NCBI GenBank assembly: GCA_044507815.1
Contig: JBIQIX010000004.1
Coordinates: forward strand, 195,288-259,287
Direction of reading: 5' to 3'
Length of the DNA stretch: 64,000 nt
Source of the DNA: Flavobacteriales bacterium
GTDB lineage: Bacteria; Bacteroidota; Bacteroidia; Flavobacteriales_F; PHOS-HE28
Part shown: one piece after another, positions 4,908 through 51,837 of the stretch
How the letters are laid out: every line of letters starts with the position of its first letter
Numbering within the stretch: the first letter of the stretch is position 1
Made by a program: the position numbers and the translations under genes
Notes under the pieces: generated by a model
The model's input: the letters and a program-made list of their open reading frames with translations, nothing else
The model's database searches: none
Told to the model about the DNA's origin: nothing

Positions 4908-5207
4908 TCGCGCGGTATTGCAGTGCGAGTGATCAAGGGCCGTGCCAAGACGCATGCCCGTTCAAACTGCGCACCGCATGGGGCAATATCCCTCCACATG
5001 TGGACTTCCTCCACACTTTTTTGTTGCCCGTGCCACACTCAGCAATGCCCCAGCAGGGTGTACACGAGAATGAAGATCAATACAGTGCCCAAGCAACCAC
5101 CGCCCCATTTGTAAGCGGCGGCACCAGCCAAGATCCCACGGAATAATTTGTTCATGTGTGAACGGGTTGTTTCCATGGGGAACAGCCCATTCAGTTCCAT
5201 GGTTCGG

Positions 5208-5729
5208 TCACCTGCCGAAAAGGAATGTGCGACCCGGAAGCAGTTCTCCCTTGCGCCATTTTTCCTTGCGCACCACCCGGTCGTTTTCATAGAATTTCCA
5301 ACTGCCGTGCTTTTTGCCATCCTTGTAATGGCCCACGATCCCTTGATCGCGGAAGGCCCAGGTACCCTCGCGTTTGCCCATGCGGAATTGTCCTTTCACG
5401 GTGATCCGGCCTGTTGGGTCATACTCCACCCAGTCGCCGTGCAGGCTGCCCCAGCCGTAAACCGCGAAAATGAGCTGTTTGCCATCGGGGTAAAATGCGC
5501 GGTAGATGCCACTGGGCTTGCCACGCTTGAAATCGATCTGCACGGCGGTGCGCGTGGTATCGAAGGCGTATTTGCCGATCAGCCGGAAGCGCTCTTCACG
5601 CGGCATGGGCCCATATTCCACGGGGTAGGCCACGGAAACGCCATTCTCGGGCACATAAAGCGTGTCGGGTTGGGCGAGGACAAGGTGGGTGCCAAGGCAG
5701 CACAGGCAGAACAGCAAATTTCGCAACAT
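5208..5729 (-). CDS. MORN-repeat protein (YwqK-like repeat family)
   Basis: A signal-like N-terminus (MLRNLLFCLCCLGTHLVLAQ) is followed by repeated G-x-W-x-x-Y/F-x-x-G MORN-type motifs (GDWVEYDPTGRI, GTWAFRDQGIVGHYKDGKKHGSWKFYEND). The start ATG at 5727–5729 overlaps the pbpC stop as ATGA. Confidence 0.65.
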   Translation of the reverse strand: MLRNLLFCLCCLGTHLVLAQPDTLYVPENGVSVAYPVEYGPMPREERFRLIGKYAFDTTRTAVQIDFKRGKPSGIYRAFYPDGKQLIFAVYGWGSLHGDWVEYDPTGRITVKGQFRMGKREGTWAFRDQGIVGHYKDGKKHGSWKFYENDRVVRKEKWRKGELLPGRTFLFGR

Positions 5730-8134
5730 CACGGGTTGGATCTGCCCTGGCCACCAACCACCGTAAAGGTGCGGTGCAGCCTGTGGCCACGGGCATCGGT
5801 CAAAGTTATGCGGTGGGTTCCGTCGGCCGGTGAGAGCGCCATGCGGTGATCGCCCGTGGTGCTGCCGAAGTATTCCCCGTCGAGGTCCCAGAACAGCGTG
5901 GCCCCACCATCGCGGTGTGCCACTTCCACCACCATGTTCCCCCGGCTGCCATCCAGCTGCATGGGAATCAGGATCTTGGAACCCGCTTCGGGATAAAGGA
6001 TTTCCATGGGTGCGTCGTTGTCTTGCGTTCCCTCTTTCCACGGCGGAAGGGGTGCATAAGCTGGGTTCCGCTTGGCGTAATAATGTTCCATGGCGGGTGG
6101 CAATACGAACCACACGCTGGGGCGGCCGCTGCCATTGCCGGTGCGGTACATGCCGGACGGATCGAGCGTTATGCGCCGGTGGTAGGGGCAAACGGGGGAG
6201 CGCATGGCTTGTGGCGGCACCCAGAGCGTATCCGGCGCCGGGCAATCGGCACCTGCACGGTGGCCACTGGCGCGGCAGATCTGCGCGCGCACCATTTCGT
6301 CATAGGGCGGTTCCACCGGCGGGTCCTTGGGCAACAGGTTGAACAGGTCGAAAAGCAACGGTGCGGCAGCCAAGGTGCCGGTCAACCCCGGCCTTCCTTC
6401 GCCGGAGGCGTTGCCGGTCCACACGGCGACGCAATGGCGCGAGGTAAGGCCTATGGCCCAAGCATCGCGGTGCCCGTAGCTGGTGCCGGTCTTCCAGGCG
6501 ATCTGCCTGCCTCCGCTGAAGTGGTTCCAACCCTGTTCATCTGCGGGCCTGGCCACATTGCGCAGGGCTTTCAGGGTGAAGTAGATCGAACTTGCGCTCA
6601 ATGCGGGCGCAGTTTCCAAGGGCACCGCACCGGCATCGGAAGATCCCGGGGATGACAGCACGTGGGGCGGCCGGATGTCGCCTTGGCGGTATGCCATGCC
6701 CAAGCGGCCATAGTGGTTCAATACCCGCCCCATGCTGGCATAGGCGCCGGCCAATTCCCACAGGGTCGATTCCGCGCCGCCCACCACAAGTGACAGGCCG
6801 TAATCGTCGGCACCGCGATTTATGCTGGCCAGCCCGTACGCACGCAGCATCAGCAGGGTGCGCTCCAAGCCGTGGCTGCGCAAGGCGCGCACCATGGGCA
6901 CGTTCAACGAGCGCGACAGGGCCTCCGAGGCCGGTACGGCGCCGCTGTATTGTTCATCATAATTGCGCGGCGAAAATTCATTGTACCGTGTGGGCACATC
7001 GGCCAGCAGCATATCGGGTGCCAGCTCACCGCTCTGCAGCATGTCCGCGTACAAGAAAGGCTTCAATGTGCTGCCCGTGCTTCTTTTGGCCTGCACCAGG
7101 TCCACGCTTCCGGCATGGGTGCCGCCGGCCTGGCCAAGGTTGCCCACGTAGGCCAGCACCTGTCCGGAGTTGACATCCATGATCAGTGCGGCGGCATTGT
7201 GCACCTCATTGGCCGCCAGGCGTGCAGCATAGCGGTCGGCGGCGATGGTGGCGCGGCGCTGGAGGCCGCCGTGCAACGTGGTGCGCACGAGCTTGCCGCG
7301 GTGCCCGGTGGCAGCCAAGGTGGCCAACAGGTGCGGCGCATCGCGGGGGAGTTCCTGTGCCTTTCCCGGCAGCGGCTCCTCCTTGGCCAACGACCATTCC
7401 AGGGTGTCGATCGCATGCACGGCCAACAGGCGGTCCAACAGACGGTCGCGCTTGGTGCGCAGGGCCTCATGGCCTTTGCCGGGGTAGATGGCCGAAGGCG
7501 CGTTGGGCAGGACGGCCAAGGTGGCGCATTCGCTCCAGCCCAGGCTGCTGGCCGGGCGGTGGAAATAGCGCCATGCGGCGGCGTCAACGCCCACCACGTT
7601 GCCGCCGAAAGGGGCGTGCGCGGCAAAGAGCCGGAGAATTTCCTCTTTGTTGAACCGCAGTTCCAGCCGTAGCGCCAGCAGTGCCTCGCGGAGCTTTTCA
7701 CCATAGGTGCGGAGCCGGTTGCCCCGGGCCATGCGCGCCAATTGCATGGTGAGGGTGCTGCCGCCGCTTATTACCCGGCCGGCCTTCCGGTTCTGCAGCC
7801 ACGCCCGCACCAGCGCGCCGGGGCTGATGCCCCAATGCCGCCGAAAGCCGCGGTCCTCGAACTGCACCAGGCATACCGTGAAGCGGGCGGGTACTGCTTC
7901 CGGTGGCGGAAACCGCCATTGGCCATCGGTGGCCACGGTGGCCCCCAGCAACTGCCCGTCCCGGTCCATCAATACCGTGGATGTGGGCGCGGGGAAAAGC
8001 GGGGGCATGGGCCACCAACGCGCCCAGGCCAAAAGGGCCAGCAGTAAGGCGGCTGCCAGCCACCAGCGCCAACGGCGCCACCGGCGCCAATGAAACGCAG
8101 GCAAAAAGGGGGTGCTGCGCAACAGCGGGGCCAT
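5729..8134 (-). CDS. pbpC: Penicillin-binding protein 1C (bifunctional transglycosylase/transpeptidase)
   Basis: GT51 transglycosylase motifs EDRGFRRH and GGSTLTMQLAR are present. The transpeptidase domain has STLKP (SxxK) and KTGT. The C-terminus is PbpC-like. The start was chosen at MAPLLRS (8134) because of the following membrane anchor. Confidence 0.85.
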   Translation of the reverse strand: MAPLLRSTPFLPAFHWRRWRRWRWWLAAALLLALLAWARWWPMPPLFPAPTSTVLMDRDGQLLGATVATDGQWRFPPPEAVPARFTVCLVQFEDRGFRRHWGISPGALVRAWLQNRKAGRVISGGSTLTMQLARMARGNRLRTYGEKLREALLALRLELRFNKEEILRLFAAHAPFGGNVVGVDAAAWRYFHRPASSLGWSECATLAVLPNAPSAIYPGKGHEALRTKRDRLLDRLLAVHAIDTLEWSLAKEEPLPGKAQELPRDAPHLLATLAATGHRGKLVRTTLHGGLQRRATIAADRYAARLAANEVHNAAALIMDVNSGQVLAYVGNLGQAGGTHAGSVDLVQAKRSTGSTLKPFLYADMLQSGELAPDMLLADVPTRYNEFSPRNYDEQYSGAVPASEALSRSLNVPMVRALRSHGLERTLLMLRAYGLASINRGADDYGLSLVVGGAESTLWELAGAYASMGRVLNHYGRLGMAYRQGDIRPPHVLSSPGSSDAGAVPLETAPALSASSIYFTLKALRNVARPADEQGWNHFSGGRQIAWKTGTSYGHRDAWAIGLTSRHCVAVWTGNASGEGRPGLTGTLAAAPLLFDLFNLLPKDPPVEPPYDEMVRAQICRASGHRAGADCPAPDTLWVPPQAMRSPVCPYHRRITLDPSGMYRTGNGSGRPSVWFVLPPAMEHYYAKRNPAYAPLPPWKEGTQDNDAPMEILYPEAGSKILIPMQLDGSRGNMVVEVAHRDGGATLFWDLDGEYFGSTTGDHRMALSPADGTHRITLTDARGHRLHRTFTVVGGQGRSNP

Positions 8135-43401: not shown

Positions 43402-44292
43402 TTGTGGAAAATGAAATACCGGACAGGTAACGGCACCGCTCCCTGGATTTCATGCCTGCTGTTCGCGGTATTGTTACTGGCCTGTGATCGGCCGCCCATG
43501 CCGGGGGCCAGCCGCATTGCGAAGGATACCTACTGGCGGCTGCACACCCTGGGCGAGGAGGAGTTGAAGCCAGCGCCGGAGGACAGTGTGCTGGTACGGG
43601 TCCGTATCGCAAGGCCGGGTGAAATGCCCGGTTCACTCTTCAGCACGGAACGCTGGTACGCGATGAAAGCCGCGGGCACGTCATTTTTTTTCGGAAGGCT
43701 GTGCCCCGGCGATAGCGCGTCGGTTTGGCTGCCGGCAACCGGGGTTCCTTGGCAGGCGCTTGGCGTTCCGCCGGAAATGGACACGGTGAATGCCGGTCCG
43801 GTACAGATGGAATTAGCGTTGCTGCAGGTCCGTACCCCTGCTGGATCGGCGCAGCTGATGCAGCAGGCCCTGATGGCCCGGAATGAAAGCGATGAGCAAC
43901 GCATCCTTTCATCCTTTTTCGGAAAGGATGAATGGCCATGGAAACAAGCCATGGGCATTTGGTACCGTTTGGAAGCGGATCCGGGCGGGCCGAAGGTGCA
44001 GAGCGGCGAAACCGTGACACTCATCTGGACGGCGCGGTTCCTGGATTCGGGCGTGATATTCGATGAGCAAACCGAAAAGGAGGGAGGCTTGACCTTCAGG
44101 CTGGGTGATCCCGGCCAGGTGATAATGGGCCTGGAGGCCGCGTGCCACTTGCTGCCCGCAAGGGGCGGGACGGGGGAATTCATCATTCCCAGTTCGCTGG
44201 CCTTTGGCCCCCGGGGTTCATCCTCGGGCATCGTTCCACCGTGGACGCCGGTCCTGTACCGGGTGCAGGTGCTGCCCCAGCGTGGGGCTTAG
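43402..44292 (+). CDS. Secreted protein with FKBP-type PPIase domains (tandem)
   Basis: N-terminal hydrophobic segment. The clearest FKBP-like block is at the C-terminus (VTLIWTARFLDSGVIFDEQ…FRLGDPGQVIMGLEAA…FIIPSSLAFGPRG); a second, N-terminal FKBP-like domain is weaker. Confidence 0.6.
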   Translation: MWKMKYRTGNGTAPWISCLLFAVLLLACDRPPMPGASRIAKDTYWRLHTLGEEELKPAPEDSVLVRVRIARPGEMPGSLFSTERWYAMKAAGTSFFFGRLCPGDSASVWLPATGVPWQALGVPPEMDTVNAGPVQMELALLQVRTPAGSAQLMQQALMARNESDEQRILSSFFGKDEWPWKQAMGIWYRLEADPGGPKVQSGETVTLIWTARFLDSGVIFDEQTEKEGGLTFRLGDPGQVIMGLEAACHLLPARGGTGEFIIPSSLAFGPRGSSSGIVPPWTPVLYRVQVLPQRGA

Positions 44293-44338
44293 CCTTGGCG
44301 CGGGGCCTGGCCGGCAAGCATCCGGCGCATCGGCGTGC

Positions 44339-45532
44339 TCAGTGCGTGTGCTCCCCGGTTCCCTTGGTCAACTCGCTTAGCAGGTAGTATGCGCCCTTGA
44401 TCACAATGCGTTCTTCCGGGCGAACGGGCGATAACGGCATGATCTCGGTATAGCCCAACGCGGTGGTGCCCACCCGCACGGGTGTCATCGCAAAGGTGAG
44501 CGGCTCCTTTTCCACGAAGATGTAATGCTCATCACCGTTGTTCACCACGGCATTTTCGGGTAGGCTCCAAGCGAAGGTGCTGTCGGTGGTGATCAACGCC
44601 TCGATGTACATGCCGGCCAGCAGGTCCTCGCTATGCCCGTCGATCTTGGCATGTGCCAGCACGGCCTGCTGGTCGCTTTGGAACGCCTTGTTCATGGCGT
44701 ATATGGTGGCGGAATGATGGCCGATCGATTCGCCGGCATGGCCGAAGACCACCTTTTGCCCCACCTTCACCTTGGCCACGTCCTGTTCGAAGATGTTGAG
44801 GTCGATGTGCAGGCCGCTGTTGTCCACGAGGGTGAACAGGGGCTTGTTGGGCTCTGCGTTCTGGCCCGTGTTCACGTTGATGGCCTGCACATTGCCCTCT
44901 ATCGGGGCCAGTACGCTGAAGGTGGGGCTGATCCGTTGCGGTGTTATGGTGGCCGGGTCAACCCCGAACAGGCGCAGTTTGGCGGCCATTGCCGATTGGC
45001 GCGCCTGCGCCATGGAAAGGTCGGCCTGTGCCCGTTCGAGCGTGCGCGTTGGGCTTATCCGTTCCTCGTGCAGGCCCTGCTGGCGCTTGAGGTCGGCATC
45101 CAGTGCCTGCAGGTTGGCACCGTTCTCGAGATAATCCTGTTGCAATTGCAGCAACTCCAGGCTTTCCAGCGAGGCCAATGCCTGCCCTTTCTGCACATGC
45201 TGGCCGTCGCGCACCTGTACCTGGCGCACGAGGCCGCCGAAGAGCACGCTCACCTCGGCGCTTTTGTCCGGTGGCAGTACCAAGCGTCCGTTCACGCGCA
45301 ACGATGAATTGAGGCCACGCTTTTCCATGGTGCCCGTGGTCAGCCCGATGGCGGCCACCTGGTCCGTGGTGAGCTTTACCTCGTCGGCATGCGCACCCTC
45401 GCTTTCCTGCCCGGCGTGGTCACCCGGGGCGGCCGGGGTGCTGCACGCGACAACGGCCAGGGCGAGCAAAAAAGGAAGCGTAGATCGCATGGGGTAGTAG
45501 GCTGAACGTGTTTTCATGAAAGGCTTGTTCAT
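44339..45532 (-). CDS. Efflux RND transporter periplasmic adaptor subunit (CzcB/CusB-like)
   Basis: Lipoprotein-type signal peptide, coiled-coil hairpin, and biotinyl/lipoyl-like plus beta-barrel domains typical of HlyD-family adaptors. Immediately downstream of the RND pump gene. Confidence 0.8.
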   Translation of the reverse strand: MNKPFMKTRSAYYPMRSTLPFLLALAVVACSTPAAPGDHAGQESEGAHADEVKLTTDQVAAIGLTTGTMEKRGLNSSLRVNGRLVLPPDKSAEVSVLFGGLVRQVQVRDGQHVQKGQALASLESLELLQLQQDYLENGANLQALDADLKRQQGLHEERISPTRTLERAQADLSMAQARQSAMAAKLRLFGVDPATITPQRISPTFSVLAPIEGNVQAINVNTGQNAEPNKPLFTLVDNSGLHIDLNIFEQDVAKVKVGQKVVFGHAGESIGHHSATIYAMNKAFQSDQQAVLAHAKIDGHSEDLLAGMYIEALITTDSTFAWSLPENAVVNNGDEHYIFVEKEPLTFAMTPVRVGTTALGYTEIMPLSPVRPEERIVIKGAYYLLSELTKGTGEHTH

Positions 45533-45544
45533 CGGTTGCGCGTT

Positions 45545-48500
45545 TTAGCGACCCAGCAGGGCATTGAGGTGAAGTGTGGTCAGGCCCAATTGGAGCAGCA
45601 CATCGAGGTGGGCCTCCTCGATCGCCCTGGCTTGTTCCATGCCTTGCAGGAATTCCATGTAGCTGGCCTCGCCGCTTTGGTAGGCCCGGGTGGCATCATG
45701 GCGCAGGGCCGTGGCCAACGCCGTGCCTGTGCCCTGGTAGTATTCGAGGCTTTGTTGCAATTGGGTCCATTGGGCGCGTGTAGCGGTCAGTTCGGCCACA
45801 CGCCCGCGGCGCAGTTCCTCGTATTGTTGTTCGGCGATCTCGCTGCGCAGGCGGGCCGCACGGGTCTGCGCTCCCTGTCCCGAACCGGGCAGGGGGATGG
45901 AAGTGCCGAGCACGTAACCTTTGTATGGGAATACGCCATCGATGGATTGGAGGATCGCACCGGCTTGCAATGATGGCGCCCATTGGGCGCGCTGCATGCG
46001 CCATTCGGCCCCGGCCACTTGGGCCCGTTGCCGTGCCGATGCCAGCACGGGGTCGTGCCCAGCGTCTGCCGGCGGGTCGGTTAGCTGTGTTGCCATGCGG
46101 GCCAAGGCGGCGGTATCGGCGACGGCCCCGGCCAGTGGGCCGGTCCATTGTTCAAGTTCAACCGCAAAAACAGCCACGTCCGAGCTTGCCTTTTGCCATT
46201 GCAGCCTGGCCTGGTCGGCAGCGCTTTTCGCGCTCATGGCCTCCAAGCGTCCGCTTTGGCCCAGCTGGAATTTGCGGTCGGCCATGCTGGCCAGCAGTTG
46301 CATTGCGCTGTCGTTGCGCTGCAGTAGCCGTGCGCGCCAGGTGGCGGCCGACCACTGCAGGTAGGCCCCGGCCACGTTTTCGCGCACGGCCGCACCGATG
46401 CGCTGCCGGTCGGCCTCGGCTAAGCGCAGGCTTTCCTGCAAGTAGCGGCTGCGTTGGGCAATGGCCGTGGGGAACGGGATACCGGTAACGGCTTGCAGGT
46501 TGAAATCGTGGGCGGCACTGTTGATCTGCCCGCCCTGCAGCTGGGCGCTGACCGGTTGGAGCTGTAATGCGGTTTTCTTCAGGGCCTGCTGCTGCCGCAC
46601 GTCCAGTTCGGCGGCCGTAATGGCAGGGTGGCCCCGCATGGCGCGGGCGATGGCCGTATCAAGGGGCAGCACGGGCGCCTGCGCGCTTGCCGGCACGGCC
46701 GCCGTAATGGCCAAGGCGAGCACCATGATGGGCGCGCCGCCTGGGGAATCGCGCTTCTGCTTCCGTTTCCTGCGCATGAACACCCAGTGGTAGAGCACGG
46801 GAACCACGGCCAGGGTGAGCAGGGTGGAGGTTATGAGACCCCCGATAACCACCGTGGCCAAGGGACGTTGCACTTCTGCGCCGGGGCTGGTGCTGATGGC
46901 CATGGGCAGGAAGCCGAGCGAGGCCACGGCAGCGGTGGCCAGCACGGGCCGCAAGCGGGCCATGGTGCCGCGCACCACGCGCTCGGTCACGTCCTCCACG
47001 CCGTCCGCCTTCAAGCGGTTGAAATAGCTCATGAGCACGATGCCGTTGAGCACCGCCACGCCGAAGAGCGCGATGAAGCCGATGCCCGCGCTGATGCTGA
47101 AGTCCAGCCCGCGCACCCACAGGGCGAGCACGCCGCCCACCGCGGCCATGGGCACAGCGCTGAAGATGATCAGCGCTTCGCTGAGCGAGCGGAAGGCGAA
47201 GTAAAGCAGCACGAAGATGAGGGCCATGGCCAGCGGCACGGTGAGCAGCAGCCGCGCGCTGGCTTCCTGCAAATTCTTGAACGTGCCGCCGTAGCTGACG
47301 AACCAGCCGGTGGGCAGCTTCAGGTCGCGGCCGATCACGGCTTGGATATCTTCCGCCGTGCTTTGGATGTCGCGGCCCCGCACGTTGGCTTCCACCACGA
47401 TGCGCCGCGCGCCGTTCTCGCGGCTCACCTGTGCGGCCGCGCTTTGGAAGCTCACTTCGGCCAGTTGCCCCAGTGGGATCTGCTTGCCCGTGCCGGGCAG
47501 CGGCACCAGAATGCTCTTCACTTTATCGGCGTCCGCATCGCGCATGTCGGCCAGGCGCACCACCAGGTCGAAGCGGCGTTCACCTTCATACACCACGCCG
47601 GCGTGGCCGCCCGCCAAGGCGGTGTTCAGTACGCGGTTCAGCTCGGCGATGTTCAGCCCGTACTGCGCCACGCGGGCACGGTCGTATTTCACCACGAGTT
47701 GCGGCATGCCGGTCACCTGCTCCACCTTGATGTCCGTGGCCCCGGGCACCGTGGCGATCAGCGCGGCGGCTTCATTGGCCTTCTTGAACATGTGGTCGAG
47801 GTCGTCGCCGTAGATCTTCACCGCGATGTCGCTCTTCACCCCGGCGATCAGTTCGTTGAAGCGCATCTGGATGGGCTGCTCGAAGCTGAGGTTGATGCCG
47901 GGGATCACGCCGAGCTTTTCGGCCATCAGCTCCGCCATCTTCTCGCGGTCCTTCGTGGTGGTCCAGTCCTTGCGTTCCTTCATCACGATGATCAGGTCCT
48001 GGCTTTCCATGGGCATGGGGTCGGTGGGGATCTCGCTGCTGCCGATCTTGCCCACCACCTCCTTCACTTCCGGGAATTCCTTCATCAGGATGCGCGCGGC
48101 CTGATCGCTCACGGCGATGCTCTGGCTGAGGTTGCTTCCTTGGCGGATGGTGAGGTTGGTGGCGAAGTCGCCTTCATCCAGTTCGGGGATGAACTCGCCG
48201 CCCAAGCGGTTGAACACGAACAGCGAGATCACCACCAAGCCCAAGGCACCCGCCAAGGTGGACTTGCGGTGGCGCAGCAATCCCTTCAACTTGGGCGCAT
48301 ACCATTGCTGCAGGCGGTGTACCATGCGCTCGCTCCAGCTTTCACCTTTCGGGATCTGACGGTCCATGAAGAGTGAGACCACCCACGGCACATAGGTGAC
48401 GCTGAGCAGCAGTGCGCCGATGATGGCGAAGCTGACGGTGAATGCCATGGGGCGGAACATCTTGCCTTCGATGCCCACCAGGGCGAAGATGGGCACGTAC

Positions 48501-49873
48501 ACGATGAGGATGATCACCTGGCCGAAGACGGCGCTTTTCATGATGCCTCCGGCCGAGCGGATCGTCTCGTCGCTCATTTCCTTCTTGGTGAGAAGGGCTC
48601 CTGCGTGGCGCTTGTGCAGGGCGAAGAGCATGCCTTCCACCACGATCACCGCGCCGTCCACGATGAGGCCGAAATCCAGCGCGCCCATGCTCATCAGGTT
48701 GGCGCTCTGGCCGGCCACCACCATGCAGCCGATGGCGAACAGCAGCGCGAGCGGGATCACGCTGGCCACGATGAGGCCCGCGCGCCAGTTGCCCAGCAGC
48801 AGCAGCAGCACGGCGATCACGATCAACGCGCCCATCAGCAGGTTGTGCTCCACCGTGCCGATGGTCTGCGCCACCAGCTTGGAGCGGTCCACGAAAACAT
48901 CCACGTATACGCCTTCGGGCAGGCTGTGCCGCACCTCTTCCATGCGCTCCTTCACGGCGGTGACGGTGGCCATGGCGTTGGCGCCCTTCATCATCAGCAC
49001 CACGCCGCCCACGGCTTCGCCTTGGCCGTTGCGCGTCATGGCACCGTAGCGCGTGGCATGGCCGAACTGCACTTCGGCCACATCGCGCACGCGCACCGGA
49101 CTGCCGCCGCGCGCCTCGATCACCGTGTTCTCCAGGTCCTTTAGGGAACTCACTAAGCCTTCGCCGCGGATGAAGTAGATGTTCGGCCCTTTCTCGATGT
49201 AGCTGCCACCGGTGTTGGCGTTGTTGCTCTCCAGCGCGTTGAACACGTCCAGCAGGGAAAGCCCGGCACCGGCCAGCTTGCGCGCGTCCACGCGGACTTC
49301 ATACTGTTTCAGCAGGCCGCCGAAGCTGCTTACGTCGATCACGCCCGGCACGCCCAGCAGGTGTTGGCGCACCACCCAGTCCTGCAGCGTGCGCAGTTCC
49401 ATCAGGTCGAATTGGCCTTGGTGGGCGCTGTCCACGGCGAGGGTGTACTGGTAGATCTCGCCGATGCCCGTGGTGGGCGGCGCCATTTCCGGGGTGCCGT
49501 ATCCGGCGGGGATCTGGCTTTGGGCCTGTGCAATGCGCTCCTGCACCAATTGGCGGCTGAGGTAGAGCGGCACGTTGTCCTTGAAGACCACCGTGACCAC
49601 CGAGAGGCCGCTGCGCGAAACGCTGCGCAACTCCACCAGGTCGGGCAGGTTCTTGAAGGCCTGTTCCAGCGGGAAGGTGATGAACTGTTCCACCTCCTGC
49701 GTGGCGAGGTTGGGCGCAATGGTGTTCACCAGCACCTGGTTGTTGGTGACGTCGGGCAGCGCGTCGAGGGGCAGCTGGGTGACGGACCATGCGCCCCAGC
49801 CGATGAAGGCCAGGAGCAGCAGGCCTGTGATGAGCTTGTTGCGTACGGAGAACGAGATGATACGTTCGATCAT
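45545..49873 (-). CDS. CzcA/CusA-type heavy-metal efflux RND permease fused in frame to a TolC-like outer-membrane efflux protein module
   Basis: Residues 1–1032 form a 12-transmembrane RND permease (MIERIISFSVRNKLITGLLLLAF…). With no intervening stop codon this continues into MRRKRKQKRDSPGGAPIMVLALAITAAVPASAQA (a signal-peptide-like segment; ATG at 46777) and about 410 aa with outer-membrane-efflux-protein family helical-repeat character. Confidence 0.7.
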   Translation of the reverse strand: MIERIISFSVRNKLITGLLLLAFIGWGAWSVTQLPLDALPDVTNNQVLVNTIAPNLATQEVEQFITFPLEQAFKNLPDLVELRSVSRSGLSVVTVVFKDNVPLYLSRQLVQERIAQAQSQIPAGYGTPEMAPPTTGIGEIYQYTLAVDSAHQGQFDLMELRTLQDWVVRQHLLGVPGVIDVSSFGGLLKQYEVRVDARKLAGAGLSLLDVFNALESNNANTGGSYIEKGPNIYFIRGEGLVSSLKDLENTVIEARGGSPVRVRDVAEVQFGHATRYGAMTRNGQGEAVGGVVLMMKGANAMATVTAVKERMEEVRHSLPEGVYVDVFVDRSKLVAQTIGTVEHNLLMGALIVIAVLLLLLGNWRAGLIVASVIPLALLFAIGCMVVAGQSANLMSMGALDFGLIVDGAVIVVEGMLFALHKRHAGALLTKKEMSDETIRSAGGIMKSAVFGQVIILIVYVPIFALVGIEGKMFRPMAFTVSFAIIGALLLSVTYVPWVVSLFMDRQIPKGESWSERMVHRLQQWYAPKLKGLLRHRKSTLAGALGLVVISLFVFNRLGGEFIPELDEGDFATNLTIRQGSNLSQSIAVSDQAARILMKEFPEVKEVVGKIGSSEIPTDPMPMESQDLIIVMKERKDWTTTKDREKMAELMAEKLGVIPGINLSFEQPIQMRFNELIAGVKSDIAVKIYGDDLDHMFKKANEAAALIATVPGATDIKVEQVTGMPQLVVKYDRARVAQYGLNIAELNRVLNTALAGGHAGVVYEGERRFDLVVRLADMRDADADKVKSILVPLPGTGKQIPLGQLAEVSFQSAAAQVSRENGARRIVVEANVRGRDIQSTAEDIQAVIGRDLKLPTGWFVSYGGTFKNLQEASARLLLTVPLAMALIFVLLYFAFRSLSEALIIFSAVPMAAVGGVLALWVRGLDFSISAGIGFIALFGVAVLNGIVLMSYFNRLKADGVEDVTERVVRGTMARLRPVLATAAVASLGFLPMAISTSPGAEVQRPLATVVIGGLITSTLLTLAVVPVLYHWVFMRRKRKQKRDSPGGAPIMVLALAITAAVPASAQAPVLPLDTAIARAMRGHPAITAAELDVRQQQALKKTALQLQPVSAQLQGGQINSAAHDFNLQAVTGIPFPTAIAQRSRYLQESLRLAEADRQRIGAAVRENVAGAYLQWSAATWRARLLQRNDSAMQLLASMADRKFQLGQSGRLEAMSAKSAADQARLQWQKASSDVAVFAVELEQWTGPLAGAVADTAALARMATQLTDPPADAGHDPVLASARQRAQVAGAEWRMQRAQWAPSLQAGAILQSIDGVFPYKGYVLGTSIPLPGSGQGAQTRAARLRSEIAEQQYEELRRGRVAELTATRAQWTQLQQSLEYYQGTGTALATALRHDATRAYQSGEASYMEFLQGMEQARAIEEAHLDVLLQLGLTTLHLNALLGR

Positions 49874-49969
49874 GCACGGGTGGGCGCAAGGGCAGCCCGG
49901 GATTAAGAAGGAAGGACTTGGGAAAAGGGGACGCCAACAGGCATTGCCGGGCGCGCGGGCGCTATGCAC

Positions 49970-50347
49970 TCAGGCGCGTGGAGGCTGCCAAATGTCGGCC
50001 GGGCCGGATTGCAGGGCCACGCGGTCCTCCCAGGGCTTCAATACCAGTTCCAAGCCGTCCGATGGTACCAGCGACGGGCCGCATTGAGCAGGCACCTTGG
50101 CCTGCAGGGTTTGTGCGCCGCAATGGTGATCGCCATGAAAAGGCAGGTTGTGGTGGTCGTGATGTTCACCGGCATGGTGTTGGCCGTGCAGGTAATGTTC
50201 GCTGATGAATGCCCACCACCCGGTGTCCTCGGCAGATTGGTGCTCCCAATAATGTTTGAGCAGGCCGGGCACCTTCAGCACTTCGTGCACCTCGGTATGG
50301 GTGGCAACGAAAAGGCTGAGCAGGGAGATGGCGATCCAATGCCGCAT
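49970..50347 (-). CDS. Histidine-rich small protein (putative metal-binding), upstream of the czc-like operon
   Basis: Hydrophobic N-terminus (MRHWIAISLLSLFVATHT) and a His cluster (HYLHGQHHAGEHHDHHNLPFHGDHHC). It ends about 100 nt upstream of the RND gene start. Confidence 0.45.
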   Translation of the reverse strand: MRHWIAISLLSLFVATHTEVHEVLKVPGLLKHYWEHQSAEDTGWWAFISEHYLHGQHHAGEHHDHHNLPFHGDHHCGAQTLQAKVPAQCGPSLVPSDGLELVLKPWEDRVALQSGPADIWQPPRA

Positions 50348-50477
50348 GCGCGGCAAAGATAGTTGGGCCTTCGGCCCATATGGGGGCAATCAGGTGGGGG
50401 TCCTTGCGCCAAATAATGTCAACGGCCGCCTGGCTGATCTGAACGAAAAAGGCCCCAACTTTCGCTGGAGCCTTCCG

Positions 50478-50550
50478 TGATTCCGCTGGGACTCGAACCC
50501 AGGGCCCATACATTAAAAGTGTATTGCTCTACCAACTGAGCTACGGAATC
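50478..50550 (-). tRNA. tRNA-Lys (anticodon TTT)
   Basis: The reverse complement folds as GATTCCG-TA-GCTC-AGTTGGTA-GAGC-A-ATACA-CTTTTAA-TGTAT-GGGCC-CTGGG-TTCGAGT-CCCAG-CGGAATC-A. Confidence 0.8.
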
Positions 50551-50610
50551 AATCCCTCACACCAAGGGGGCCGAAGCCGTTTCCCTGATTTGAGGCCGCG
50601 AAGGTAATCT

Positions 50611-51837
50611 TCATTGCTTCATGTCCAAACGCTCTTCCTTTTTTTCTGCTACCCCACCGATGATCGGCAGTCGCTCGAAGGGCTTGTTGCGGTCGAACAG
50701 GTAGCGGTAGGTGGCCAAGGTGCGGTAATTGGCGGCACCGAGGTTCTCGCAAACGCGGAGCATCTTGGGGTTGAAATCGCCGACCCAGGTGAGCACCGTT
50801 TCCTTGTACCGCCGTGTTTTTTGCAGCCATTCGCTCATGAATGCGATCATGGCGCCTTCCACGCCCTTGCCCTGCCATTCCTTCACCACACCGAACACGA
50901 TCCCGGTCATGGTGGTGGCAGTGCCCCACCATTTGTGCCAAAGGAATTTCAATTTGCCCCACCAGCCCAGGCTGCCGTTCAGGTGCCGGAAGATCTCGTT
51001 CAATTCGGGCAGGTTGATGTAGAACGCGATCGGCTTGCCCCGGTGGTAAACGAAAACAACGATGCGCGGGTCCATCACCGGCTTCATCTGTTTTATGGTC
51101 TTCAGGGCCACTTCCTTGGGCATGGGCCTGAAGCCTTCGTGATCCACCCACGCCTCATTCAATACGGTGCGGAAATCCTCGGCAAGCTGTTCTGTGGACA
51201 TGCCCCGCACATTGCGGACCACGAAATCGGGATCATTTTGGAATTGGCGGTATTTGCGCACGAAAATGGGCTGTGATGGCTCCAGTGCGTCGCGCTTGAA
51301 AAAGAGCTGCCGGAAGTAGAGCTTGAAGCCGTAGCGCTCGAAAAGTTGAACGTAGTAGGAGGGGTTGTAATTGGTACCGTAGATCGGCGGGTCGGTGAAG
51401 TTCTCGATCAGCAATCCCCAGAACATGTTTCGTTCGCCCAGGTTCACCGGGCCGTCCATGGCCTCCATGCCTTGTGCCTTCAACCATGCCTTGGCGGTGT
51501 CGAAAAGCAGGTCTGCGGCGCGCTGGTCGTTGGTGCATTCAAAAAAGCCGCAGCCGCCAGTGGGTTGCTGCTTGTCGGTCCAGGCCGTCTTGGGATCCAC
51601 CCAGGCGGCGATGCGGCCGATGGCCTGCCCGCCATCATCATATAGCACCCACCGTTTGATGCTGCCCGGCTTGCGGTCGGGGCGGGGTTGCAGCAGCTTG
51701 TTCTTGGCCGGGTCGAAAACGCGCTCCACATCCTGTTCCAGGTGTGGGACCCAGTTGCTGTCGCCTGCATAGATCTTCCAAGGCAGCCGTTTCCAATCGC
51801 GCAGGGCCCGGCCGCTGGCCGCTTCCATGATCTTCAT
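50611..51837 (-). CDS. Hypothetical protein with an acyl-CoA N-acyltransferase (GNAT/FemAB-like) fold
   Basis: A 408-aa ORF. The family assignment is tentative and based on overall similarity of its sequence blocks to Bacteroidota proteins annotated as GNAT-family. Confidence 0.4.
   Translation of the reverse strand: MKIMEAASGRALRDWKRLPWKIYAGDSNWVPHLEQDVERVFDPAKNKLLQPRPDRKPGSIKRWVLYDDGGQAIGRIAAWVDPKTAWTDKQQPTGGCGFFECTNDQRAADLLFDTAKAWLKAQGMEAMDGPVNLGERNMFWGLLIENFTDPPIYGTNYNPSYYVQLFERYGFKLYFRQLFFKRDALEPSQPIFVRKYRQFQNDPDFVVRNVRGMSTEQLAEDFRTVLNEAWVDHEGFRPMPKEVALKTIKQMKPVMDPRIVVFVYHRGKPIAFYINLPELNEIFRHLNGSLGWWGKLKFLWHKWWGTATTMTGIVFGVVKEWQGKGVEGAMIAFMSEWLQKTRRYKETVLTWVGDFNPKMLRVCENLGAANYRTLATYRYLFDRNKPFERLPIIGGVAEKKEERLDMKQ

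Follow-up and report, generated by a model that had tools for sequence, protein, structure and literature searches.

A histidine-rich small ORF upstream of a fused CzcA–OEP pump gene in a Flavobacteriales bacterium: a candidate metal-sensing leader peptide

CutF of Rhodobacter capsulatus acts as an exported nascent chain: copper bound to its CxxxC motif prolongs a stall at a C-terminal proline motif, and the stalled ribosome melts a stem–loop in which the start region of cutO is buried (PMC9973294; 10.1101/2025.02.05.636593). In CruR of Bordetella pertussis (Bp2923, DUF2946/PF11162) a CXXC motif lies 45 ± 2 residues before an RAPP motif, which stands three residues from the C-terminus with a spacing conserved to 1–2 residues; copper relieves the arrest, which leads to Rho termination and turns the uptake system off (PMC9426467). 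About 45 residues separate the metal motif from the PP motif in both peptides, and this spacing is needed for CruR function (PMC9973294, PMC9426467). A set of rules for CutF-like proteins (<150 aa, signal peptide, PP in the last 15 residues, same-strand neighbour) returned 5,334 proteins, 19% of them from Bacteroidota, and OEP, ACR_tran and HlyD_D23 are common downstream neighbours over the whole list; the principle is already published, and Bacteroidota CutF-like peptides have been predicted computationally before (PMC9973294). Here we analyse a small open reading frame (ORF) upstream of a fused heavy-metal efflux pump gene of the resistance–nodulation–division (RND) type, on a 64,000-nucleotide stretch of a Flavobacteriales bacterium (assembly GCA_044507815.1, contig JBIQIX010000004.1, positions 195,288 to 259,287; called the window below, position 1 being its first letter).

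The small ORF lies on the minus strand at 49970..50347 (ATG 50347, TGA 49972–49970) and encodes 125 aa. With moderate confidence we favour the view that it encodes a metal-sensing leader peptide that acts in cis, like CutF and CruR, over that of a stable chaperone. It is probably the first, leaderless cistron of a three-gene operon consisting of the small ORF, the fused CzcA–OEP pump and an adaptor. Set against the CutF-like rules, the protein has a length of 125 aa, a Pro-Pro pair at P122–P123 of 125 and a metal gene on the same strand within 100 nt (96 nt to the CzcA–OEP gene); a Cys/His motif precedes the PP by about 45 residues, Cys76 lying 46 residues before Pro122.

The small ORF, its family and the IWQPP motif

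The small ORF has 126 codons counting the stop, and the length of 126 aa in the original prediction is corrected to 125 aa. The remainder of that description was borne out: a His-rich small protein with a hydrophobic N-terminus, on the same strand as the fused RND gene, about 100 nt before it (96 nt to the conserved start ATG 49873) and with a tRNA-Lys about 130 nt upstream (129 nt before the small-ORF ATG). The longest mechanical ORF, of 139 aa, starts at a TTG; the ATG start is used by all homologues.

The N-terminus reads MRHWIAISLLSLFVA, with a basic MRH followed by 12–14 hydrophobic residues and without an obvious AxA cleavage site; the family consensus here is MKK plus a hydrophobic stretch. 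Residues 4–17 (50297..50338, minus strand, as are all parts of the ORF) form a predicted hydrophobic helix of the export or anchor type, by sequence reading and by an AlphaFold2 helix at residues 2–17 with a predicted local distance difference test (pLDDT) score of ~90. They are followed by a conserved helical domain with the pattern TE.H..LK.P.L..HY.EH...F..F..HY (residues 18–53, 50189..50296), found in two alignments and in the AlphaFold2 helices. In residues 54–76 (50120..50188) the His cluster HGQHHAGEHHDHHNLPFHGDHHC is followed by LPF (68–70) and Cys76; this stretch was delimited by sequence reading and holds 11 of the 16 His residues among the 125. By conservation and AlphaFold2, residues 77–118 (49994..50119) are a linker of variable sequence and fixed length, and the ORF ends with IWQPPRA and the stop codon (49970..49993), an arrest-like C-terminal motif in which W, Q, P and P are invariant or >90% conserved.

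A word-indexed search with the protein returned nine homologous clusters (49–100% identity), all of 125 aa except one, whose called ORF is 31 residues longer at the N-terminus (156 aa). A profile search of a database of 1.84 billion representatives gave 1,990 clusters at E <= 1e-3, of which 525 also reached E <= 1e-10; almost all measure 120–135 aa and align over their full length, and a second profile search added a further 944 clusters at the 90% level. Among the clusters listed from the second search, all source names were 'hypothetical protein' and a Pfam domain was present in 0 of 120. Family members come from Chitinophagales, Sphingobacteriales (Mucilaginibacter) and Flavobacteriales, and a contig of the metagenome-assembled genome (MAG) GCA_044508845.1 was a match to the window. 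The window protein and its relatives reached the threshold of no model in Pfam or NCBIfam. The NCBIfam name 'HYC_CC_PP family' was tried and matched nothing. A PDB sequence search with the small protein gave nothing of note, Foldseek against the PDB with its model gave 0 matches, and the tRNA was the sole Rfam match in 49700–50700. Judged by its homologues, the profile clusters, the synonymous variation of its Pro codons and its conserved position beside the pump, the small ORF is a real gene.

Conservation was read from alignments of 126 and 108 sequences, and distances from 233 proteins. Invariant or nearly so in the alignments are Thr18-Glu19, Pro27, Leu29, His32, His36, His51 and Tyr52, then Leu68-Pro69-Phe70, and finally Ile119-Trp120-Gln121-Pro122-Pro123; Cys76 is present in at least 90% of the 108-sequence alignment. 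Information per column is 2.45 bits in the helical domain (18–53), 2.43 bits in LPF..C, 0.85 bits in the linker (77–118) and 4.07 bits in IWQPP. The His/Asp loop (54–67), at 1.35 bits per column, is the least conserved stretch of the N-terminal half, and in most relatives it is rich in Asp/Asn. The alignments thus place the conserved core of the protein outside the dense His cluster. Distances are held closely: LPF to PP measures 54.6 residues (standard deviation (sd) 0.96), TE to LPF has an sd of 1.07, and in 97% of members PP is followed by 2–3 residues and the stop, so that the C-terminus has the near-invariant family-wide consensus IWQPP[KRQ] plus 2–3 residues. The Pro codons differ synonymously among loci, a sign that the peptide, not the RNA, is under selection. 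Around the cysteine, five of seven close relatives (P0003–P0009) have CDHHC (CxxxC); the window protein itself and P0002, which are nearest, read GDHHC.

AlphaFold2, run with the 108 sequences, predicts helices at 2–17, 20–23, 26–39 and 44–53 (pLDDT 84–93 overall, 84–87 for the last three) and no secondary structure for residues 54–125 (pLDDT 50–63; linker 50–56).

The C-terminal motif also occurs outside this family. On Cytophagales plasmids (Adhaeribacter, Hymenobacter, Spirosoma, Runella) the same fused pump is preceded by DUF6660 proteins, a family of which the literature searched makes no mention. All six that were examined match PF20365; they are Cys-rich (PC.D ... C.PFC.C.CC) and end with IWQPP[KQR] plus 1–3 residues. 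Alignment of the small-protein family with DUF6660 by hhalign covers the last nine residues only, at 57% probability. In a scan of metagenome contigs (L088–L207) for one codon version of IWQPPK, 56 of 120 pattern matches formed the C-terminus of a small ORF, 23 of them before RND genes and 28 before other genes. Gaps to the latter are mostly 78–96 nt (range 42–153), and their products include TonB-dependent receptors, a cation diffusion facilitator (CDF) exporter (Cation_efflux + ZT_dimer), proteins of the HMA or HMA/DUF3347 type and an HMA–TonB-receptor-like protein. The small ORFs before these genes have heads of several other types, again rich in Cys. This distribution suggests an extensive family of leader ORFs associated with metal genes in the Bacteroidota.

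Pump linkage, promoter and spacer

The pump gene (45545..49873, minus strand) encodes 1442 aa, a CzcA-like heavy-metal RND permease fused to a TolC/OEP-like C-terminal domain (Pfam ACR_tran + OEP; TIGR00914, the CusA/CzcA family, 1165.8 bits). It is followed on the same strand by a gene for a CzcB-like periplasmic adaptor of the membrane fusion protein (MFP) type with 397 aa (44339..45532; TIGR01730, 130 bits; HlyD_D23). The closest solved structures to the pump are ZneA, a Zn exporter (668 bits), and then CusA (602 bits), and its fourth transmembrane helix (TM4) carries the motif DFGLIVDGAVIVVEG. In heavy-metal RND pumps, a D-D-E pattern in TM4 is the mark of the divalent-cation type. The ZneA-like pump with its D-D-E motif suggests Zn, Co, Cd or Ni as the metal.

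Linkage was examined in 80 loci, 11 from look-ups of the exact protein and 69 from a scan with one genome per species. A pump homologue including the OEP part lies downstream on the same strand of 77 of the 81 family ORFs, and three of the four exceptions run off the contig. The spacer between small ORF and pump measures 89–105 nt in 51 of the 77, and 37–38 nt in a Flavihumibacter subgroup. Within 10 kb no Pfam family of a metal-responsive transcription factor was found, and the surroundings of the small ORF on the window's contig showed neither a two-component system nor a regulator of the MerR/ArsR type.

Several observations on the module stand apart. The CzcA permease–TolC/OEP fusion of ~1440 aa is conserved in all 77 Bacteroidota loci and on the Cytophagales plasmids. 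Two modules follow one another on contig L002, both headed by a small ORF: the first consists of a small ORF (2187–2564) and an RND gene called as only 704 aa, and the second of a divergent small ORF (5021–5386) ending DLWIPPKA, a 121-nt gap and a full RND–OEP gene. The second small ORF was missed by the gene caller, which called a minus-strand ORF over it instead. In the window, the pump frame is open up to the small ORF and in frame with it, the TGA being the sole separator (49874–49972). This open frame gives rise to an artefactual ORF of 1474 aa from GTG 49969, the conserved pump start being ATG 49873. A fusion of small ORF and pump by stop-codon readthrough was considered and rejected, the 98-nt spacers of relatives being out of frame; the shared frame is probably due to chance in GC-rich DNA.

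A Bacteroidetes sigma-A −7 box, TATCTTTG, lies at 50354..50361 (minus strand), 6 nt before the small-ORF ATG. TAnnTTTG is invariant in six related loci despite differing upstream genes, and a −7 box stands 4–7 nt before codon 1 in 50 of 70 distinct loci. Such boxes extend from −12 to −5, 4–5 nt from the transcription start site, and leaderless mRNAs are a minority of ~5.5% in flavobacteria (PMC6847099, PMC9723704). From the position of the box just before codon 1, the transcript 5′ end is placed within 2 nt of the start of the small ORF, which would make the latter a true leader cistron; its mRNA is predicted to be leaderless or to have a leader of 1–2 nt. A scan of 44200–50700 for sigma-70 promoters found none. 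Codon 1 in many low-GC loci is TTG, GTG or CTG and not ATG, which is unexpected for leaderless translation.

The 96-nt spacer (49874..49969, minus strand) contains the hairpins hp1 (49962–49951) and hp2 (49948–49929), a C/U-rich, G-poor tract (49931–49899) and hp3 (49898–49882). The tract, 33 nt long with C15 T13 A4 G1, could serve for Rho binding or for ribosome standby binding in the clade of the window. The folding z-scores of 67 distinct spacers average −1.68, 27 of them lie below −2, and many spacers have two hairpins that begin a few nucleotides past the stop codon; the fold around the window spacer (171 nt, 49840–50010) is not unusually stable (z = −1.5), and a scan of the spacer found no canonical intrinsic terminator. 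RNAalifold with six clade members recovered hp1 with CG<->UA covariation in three sequences, three hp2 pairs in which both sides are changed with pairing kept (in the window sequence alone), hp3, and a hairpin that encloses the pump AUG. In the spacers of Mucilaginibacter (L032–L062), TTTTTGAATTnCTAATTTTCAAGATC is conserved ~10 nt before the pump ATG and after a GC-rich hairpin; it could be a terminator or attenuator, or an internal promoter element.

The effect of a paused ribosome on the pump start was computed by masking the nucleotides that a ribosome would cover when its P site holds the second Pro codon; a ribosome placed 15 codons upstream served as control. Over 65 loci the opening energy of the pump start falls by a mean of 1.70 kcal/mol under the mask and by 0.04 kcal/mol in the control (Wilcoxon p = 8e-6; the 65 loci are not independent). 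When spacer segments were swapped between loci, the stop-proximal segment paired better with its own than with foreign start-proximal segments (median rank 0.17–0.19).

Reading of the locus and its alternatives

Starting from what was obtained directly, that is, the reality of the gene, the size of its family, its linkage to the pump, the conservation of motif and ruler, the predicted lack of structure in the C-terminal half and the presence of the same C-terminal motif on unrelated sensor domains before other metal genes, we infer every mechanistic step beyond the sequence anatomy as follows. Led by its N-terminal helix, the nascent chain would enter the Sec translocon in N-in/C-out orientation, which would expose the His32/His36/His51 domain, the His-rich loop and LPF...Cys76 to the periplasm. 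With the ribosome at the IWQPP codons, the ~46 residues after Cys76 would span the ribosomal tunnel and the translocon. A divalent metal bound to the exposed sensor would alter the pulling force or the conformation of the chain and so lengthen the pause at Pro-Pro. The paused ribosome would cover the stop codon and the beginning of the 96-nt structured spacer, and expression of the pump would rise; candidates for this output step are opening of the pump start region, a block of Rho on the C/U-rich tract, or anti-termination.

Several points weigh against a leader peptide. Experimental proof of the principle is limited to two Proteobacteria, with none for Bacteroidota members, and sequence homology to the characterised families is undetectable: DUF2946 appears below threshold in two of 126 family members (best 19.8 bits, E = 0.0014, cutoff 23.7), and hhalign of the family against the SilD family of Cupriavidus metallidurans gives a probability of 10.7% over 18 N-terminal columns only. 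To our knowledge, QPP[KR] is not among the strongest polyproline stall contexts. The output step of CutF, the shielding of a Shine–Dalgarno (SD) sequence, is inapplicable because Bacteroidetes lack such sequences. On the RNA side, the ribosome mask has no effect in the high-GC clade of the window (14.1 to 13.8 kcal/mol), in which local hairpins keep the pump start locked; RNAalifold for the Mucilaginibacter clade yields a weak consensus (−4.5 kcal/mol) without compensatory pairs; and the swap test, with a Wilcoxon p of 0.009 at the level of clusters, is confounded by GC content and only suggestive. Finally, the conserved and confidently predicted N-terminal helical domain would equally fit a stable protein.

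This last point belongs to the explanation that competes best, although we hold it to be unlikely: the small protein would be a stable, membrane-anchored periplasmic metal-binding accessory, such as a chaperone, a buffer or a pump subunit in the manner of CusF, CzcE, CzcI or AcrZ, whose His-rich region hands metal to the pump and whose C-terminus docks on a partner, with no translation arrest. It would account for the 16 His in 125 residues, for the conserved, confidently helical N-terminal domain with its invariant His triad, for the strict co-occurrence with the pump, and for a length that is fixed over the whole protein and not in the linker alone (the sd of 1.07 from TE to LPF). Yet no match to a chaperone family was obtained in Pfam, NCBIfam or the PDB, by sequence or by fold; the C-terminal 70 residues are predicted to be unstructured and the His cluster is not conserved; and neither a conserved spacer length nor a family-wide ribosome-mask signal is predicted by an accessory protein. 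The main reason to rank a leader peptide above a chaperone is that IWQPP is shared by unrelated sensor heads before unrelated metal genes, namely those for TonB-dependent receptors, CDF exporters and HMA proteins, which ties the motif to a mechanism and not to docking on a pump. The original prediction had suggested a metal chaperone or sensor beside a czc/cus operon; its sensor half gains from the linkage of family and pump and from the features of a regulatory leader, and its chaperone half loses ground because AlphaFold2 predicts no structure for residues 54–125 and CusF- or CzcE-type families gave no match.

It had further been proposed that the whole efflux locus is a genomic island, tRNA genes being common integration points. 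The tRNA-Lys (anticodon UUU; 50477..50550, minus strand; ARAGORN, and Rfam tRNA with 75.2 bits) does lie 129 nt upstream on the same strand. With a GC content of 0.637 the locus ranks among the top 2% of 6-kb windows, and its tetranucleotide distance lies in the 6% tail; the module occurs in other contexts without a tRNA in L002, L011 and L058; homologous modules are carried by Cytophagales plasmids, beside transposases in two of six examined; and the flank past the adaptor gene differs between the window and the MAG locus L001. Against this, the 3′ end of the tRNA-Lys matches only the tRNA itself in the 64-kb window (22-mer with <=3 mismatches, 15-mer with <=2), so that the direct repeat of an integration event is missing, and no Pfam family of integrases or transposases occurs within 10 kb on either side. 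The difference in composition is small (0.637 versus 0.614 for the window, sd 0.012; a profile without a sharp step), an excess of ~2 points that is driven mostly by the pump gene (GC at third codon positions 0.85 versus 0.72–0.80 in its neighbours). The order 408-aa gene, tRNA-Lys, small ORF, RND, MFP is common to the window and L001, and L073 likewise has a tRNA-Lys directly before the small ORF. The arrangement of tRNA and operon is therefore old, being common to L073 and to L001, whose small protein is 51% identical to that of the window; in L079 a tRNA-Lys lies 1.4 kb upstream. Directly after the tRNA in the window there is a terminator-like hairpin with a T-run (GGCTCCAgcgaaagtTGGGGCC TTTTT; 50446..50472, minus strand, by sequence reading), and similar ones follow the tRNA in L001 and L073. 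The hairpin suggests that the tRNA is transcribed separately, and a promoter box of its own precedes the operon. No empty site, that is, a tRNA-Lys without the operon, was found in the related genomes examined. With mobility genes absent within 10 kb and the tRNA adjacency common to relatives, integration of an island at the tRNA-Lys gene is very improbable, and a recent tRNA-targeted island is largely refuted. The plasmid relatives indicate that the module has moved during evolution, and nothing marks the copy in the window as a recent island. The tRNA-Lys is best taken as a neighbour of the operon.

Two further observations concern this flank. In L073, a Flavobacteriales MAG, tandem tRNA-Lys genes with the anticodons UUU and CUU (5513–5588, 5814–5887) precede the small ORF; the window has UUU only. 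The 408-aa protein upstream of the tRNA (50611–51837, minus strand) matches no Pfam or NCBIfam model, and its position is conserved in L001 (398 aa).

The possibility that the small ORF is no gene but an open frame arisen by chance in GC-rich DNA has virtually nothing left to recommend it: long overlapping ORFs are abundant in all frames of this region with 61% GC, but the protein is conserved across Bacteroidota down to ~25% identity with invariant motifs and constant length, and synonymous codon variation together with the conserved gene position already refutes the idea.

Beyond the assignment of the small ORF as a leader peptide, we put forward tentatively, as a proposal somewhat short of probable, that leaderless arrest peptides of modular build may occur throughout the Bacteroidota. 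One IWQPP[KRQ] module would be combined with interchangeable periplasmic sensor heads (His-helical, Cys-rich DUF6660 and other Cys-rich types), placed ~41–46 residues in front of it in the two families measured, and, via a structured spacer of ~90 nt, would control RND pumps, CDF exporters, TonB-dependent receptors and HMA proteins. On the same tentative footing, the window protein would found an uncurated His-type class, probably responsive to Zn/Co/Ni, with an output that differs from that of CutF, there being no SD sequence to unmask, and possibly from that of CruR.

What the window adds to the published principle is an uncurated His-type family, a phylum-typical arrest-like motif common to DUF6660 and other heads, a predicted leaderless arrangement, and a fused pump as the target. 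If the leader-peptide assignment is true, the expression of heavy-metal efflux in many environmental and wastewater Bacteroidota would be under the control of a nascent peptide that directly informs its own ribosome of metal in the periplasm. The CutF/CruR principle would then extend to a phylum whose promoters are unusual and whose translation does without SD sequences, and a function would be at hand for an unnamed family of ~2,000 sequence clusters and for Pfam DUF6660. IWQPP would be a short portable arrest motif with exchangeable sensor heads, potentially useful for metal biosensors. Such ORFs are often missed or mis-started in annotation because many appear to begin with TTG, GTG or CTG at the predicted 5′ end.

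Comparison with described systems

CusF and CzcE are folded periplasmic proteins. Like them, the window protein is small, putatively exported, and encoded beside a heavy-metal RND operon; it matches no Pfam or NCBIfam model of the CusF, CzcE, CopK or HMA families and has no predicted fold past residue 53. CzcI of C. metallidurans is likewise a small ORF before an RND operon, czcCBA; it has been suggested to be a metal-sensing regulator and is without a C-terminal proline motif (PMC9973294).

SilD/CusD, on plasmid pMOL30 of C. metallidurans, comes nearer in layout: its small ORF lies 72 nt before the RND operon silCBA, its N-terminus RRHWIAAFLL resembles MRHWIAISLL of the window protein, and a CxxxC stands 47 residues before a PPP run. 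It differs in that 13 conserved residues (LAILHCCFR) follow the prolines and in that its pump is of the Cu/Ag type. Opposite silD, pMOL30 encodes a hypothetical protein (L081, 20701–21096) with a CxxC and the ending ...LLRPPSTPV; this divergent gene may be another CutF-like small ORF.

DUF6660 proteins share with the window protein the position before a fused CzcA–OEP gene, an N-terminal hydrophobic segment, the IWQPP end and a similar size, and differ in a sensor part that is Cys-rich where that of the window protein is His-helical. PF20365 (gathering score 27 bits) does not match the window protein, and two of 126 family members gave hits to it at E = 0.01.

The likeness to CutF lies in a small first cistron, a putative N-terminal Sec-type signal, a short structured spacer and a downstream gene of metal homeostasis. 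The differences are IWQPP[KRQ] in place of a PPP-type motif, a His helical domain with a single Cys in place of CxxxC as the sensor, a fused RND–OEP pump in place of a multicopper oxidase as the target, and a transcript that is predicted to be leaderless. With CruR the window protein shares an upstream ORF, a metal motif at a fixed distance and an arrest motif 2–3 residues before the stop (RAPP/WQPP); an export signal is present in most members, and the C-rich, G-poor tract of the window spacer would be compatible with Rho loading. The CruR spacer has 162 nt versus 96 nt in the window, and where CruR has CXXC and RAPP, the window protein reads GDHHC, with one Cys only, and WQPP. In CruR, copper shuts uptake off, and an efflux pump requires the opposite logic. 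A search with DUF2946 (PF11162) gave no match to the window protein at E <= 10. The protein is not classed as a DUF2946 member, because homology is undemonstrable from the sub-threshold score and the SilD profile comparison, and is filed instead as one that would work in the manner of a CutF/CruR peptide.

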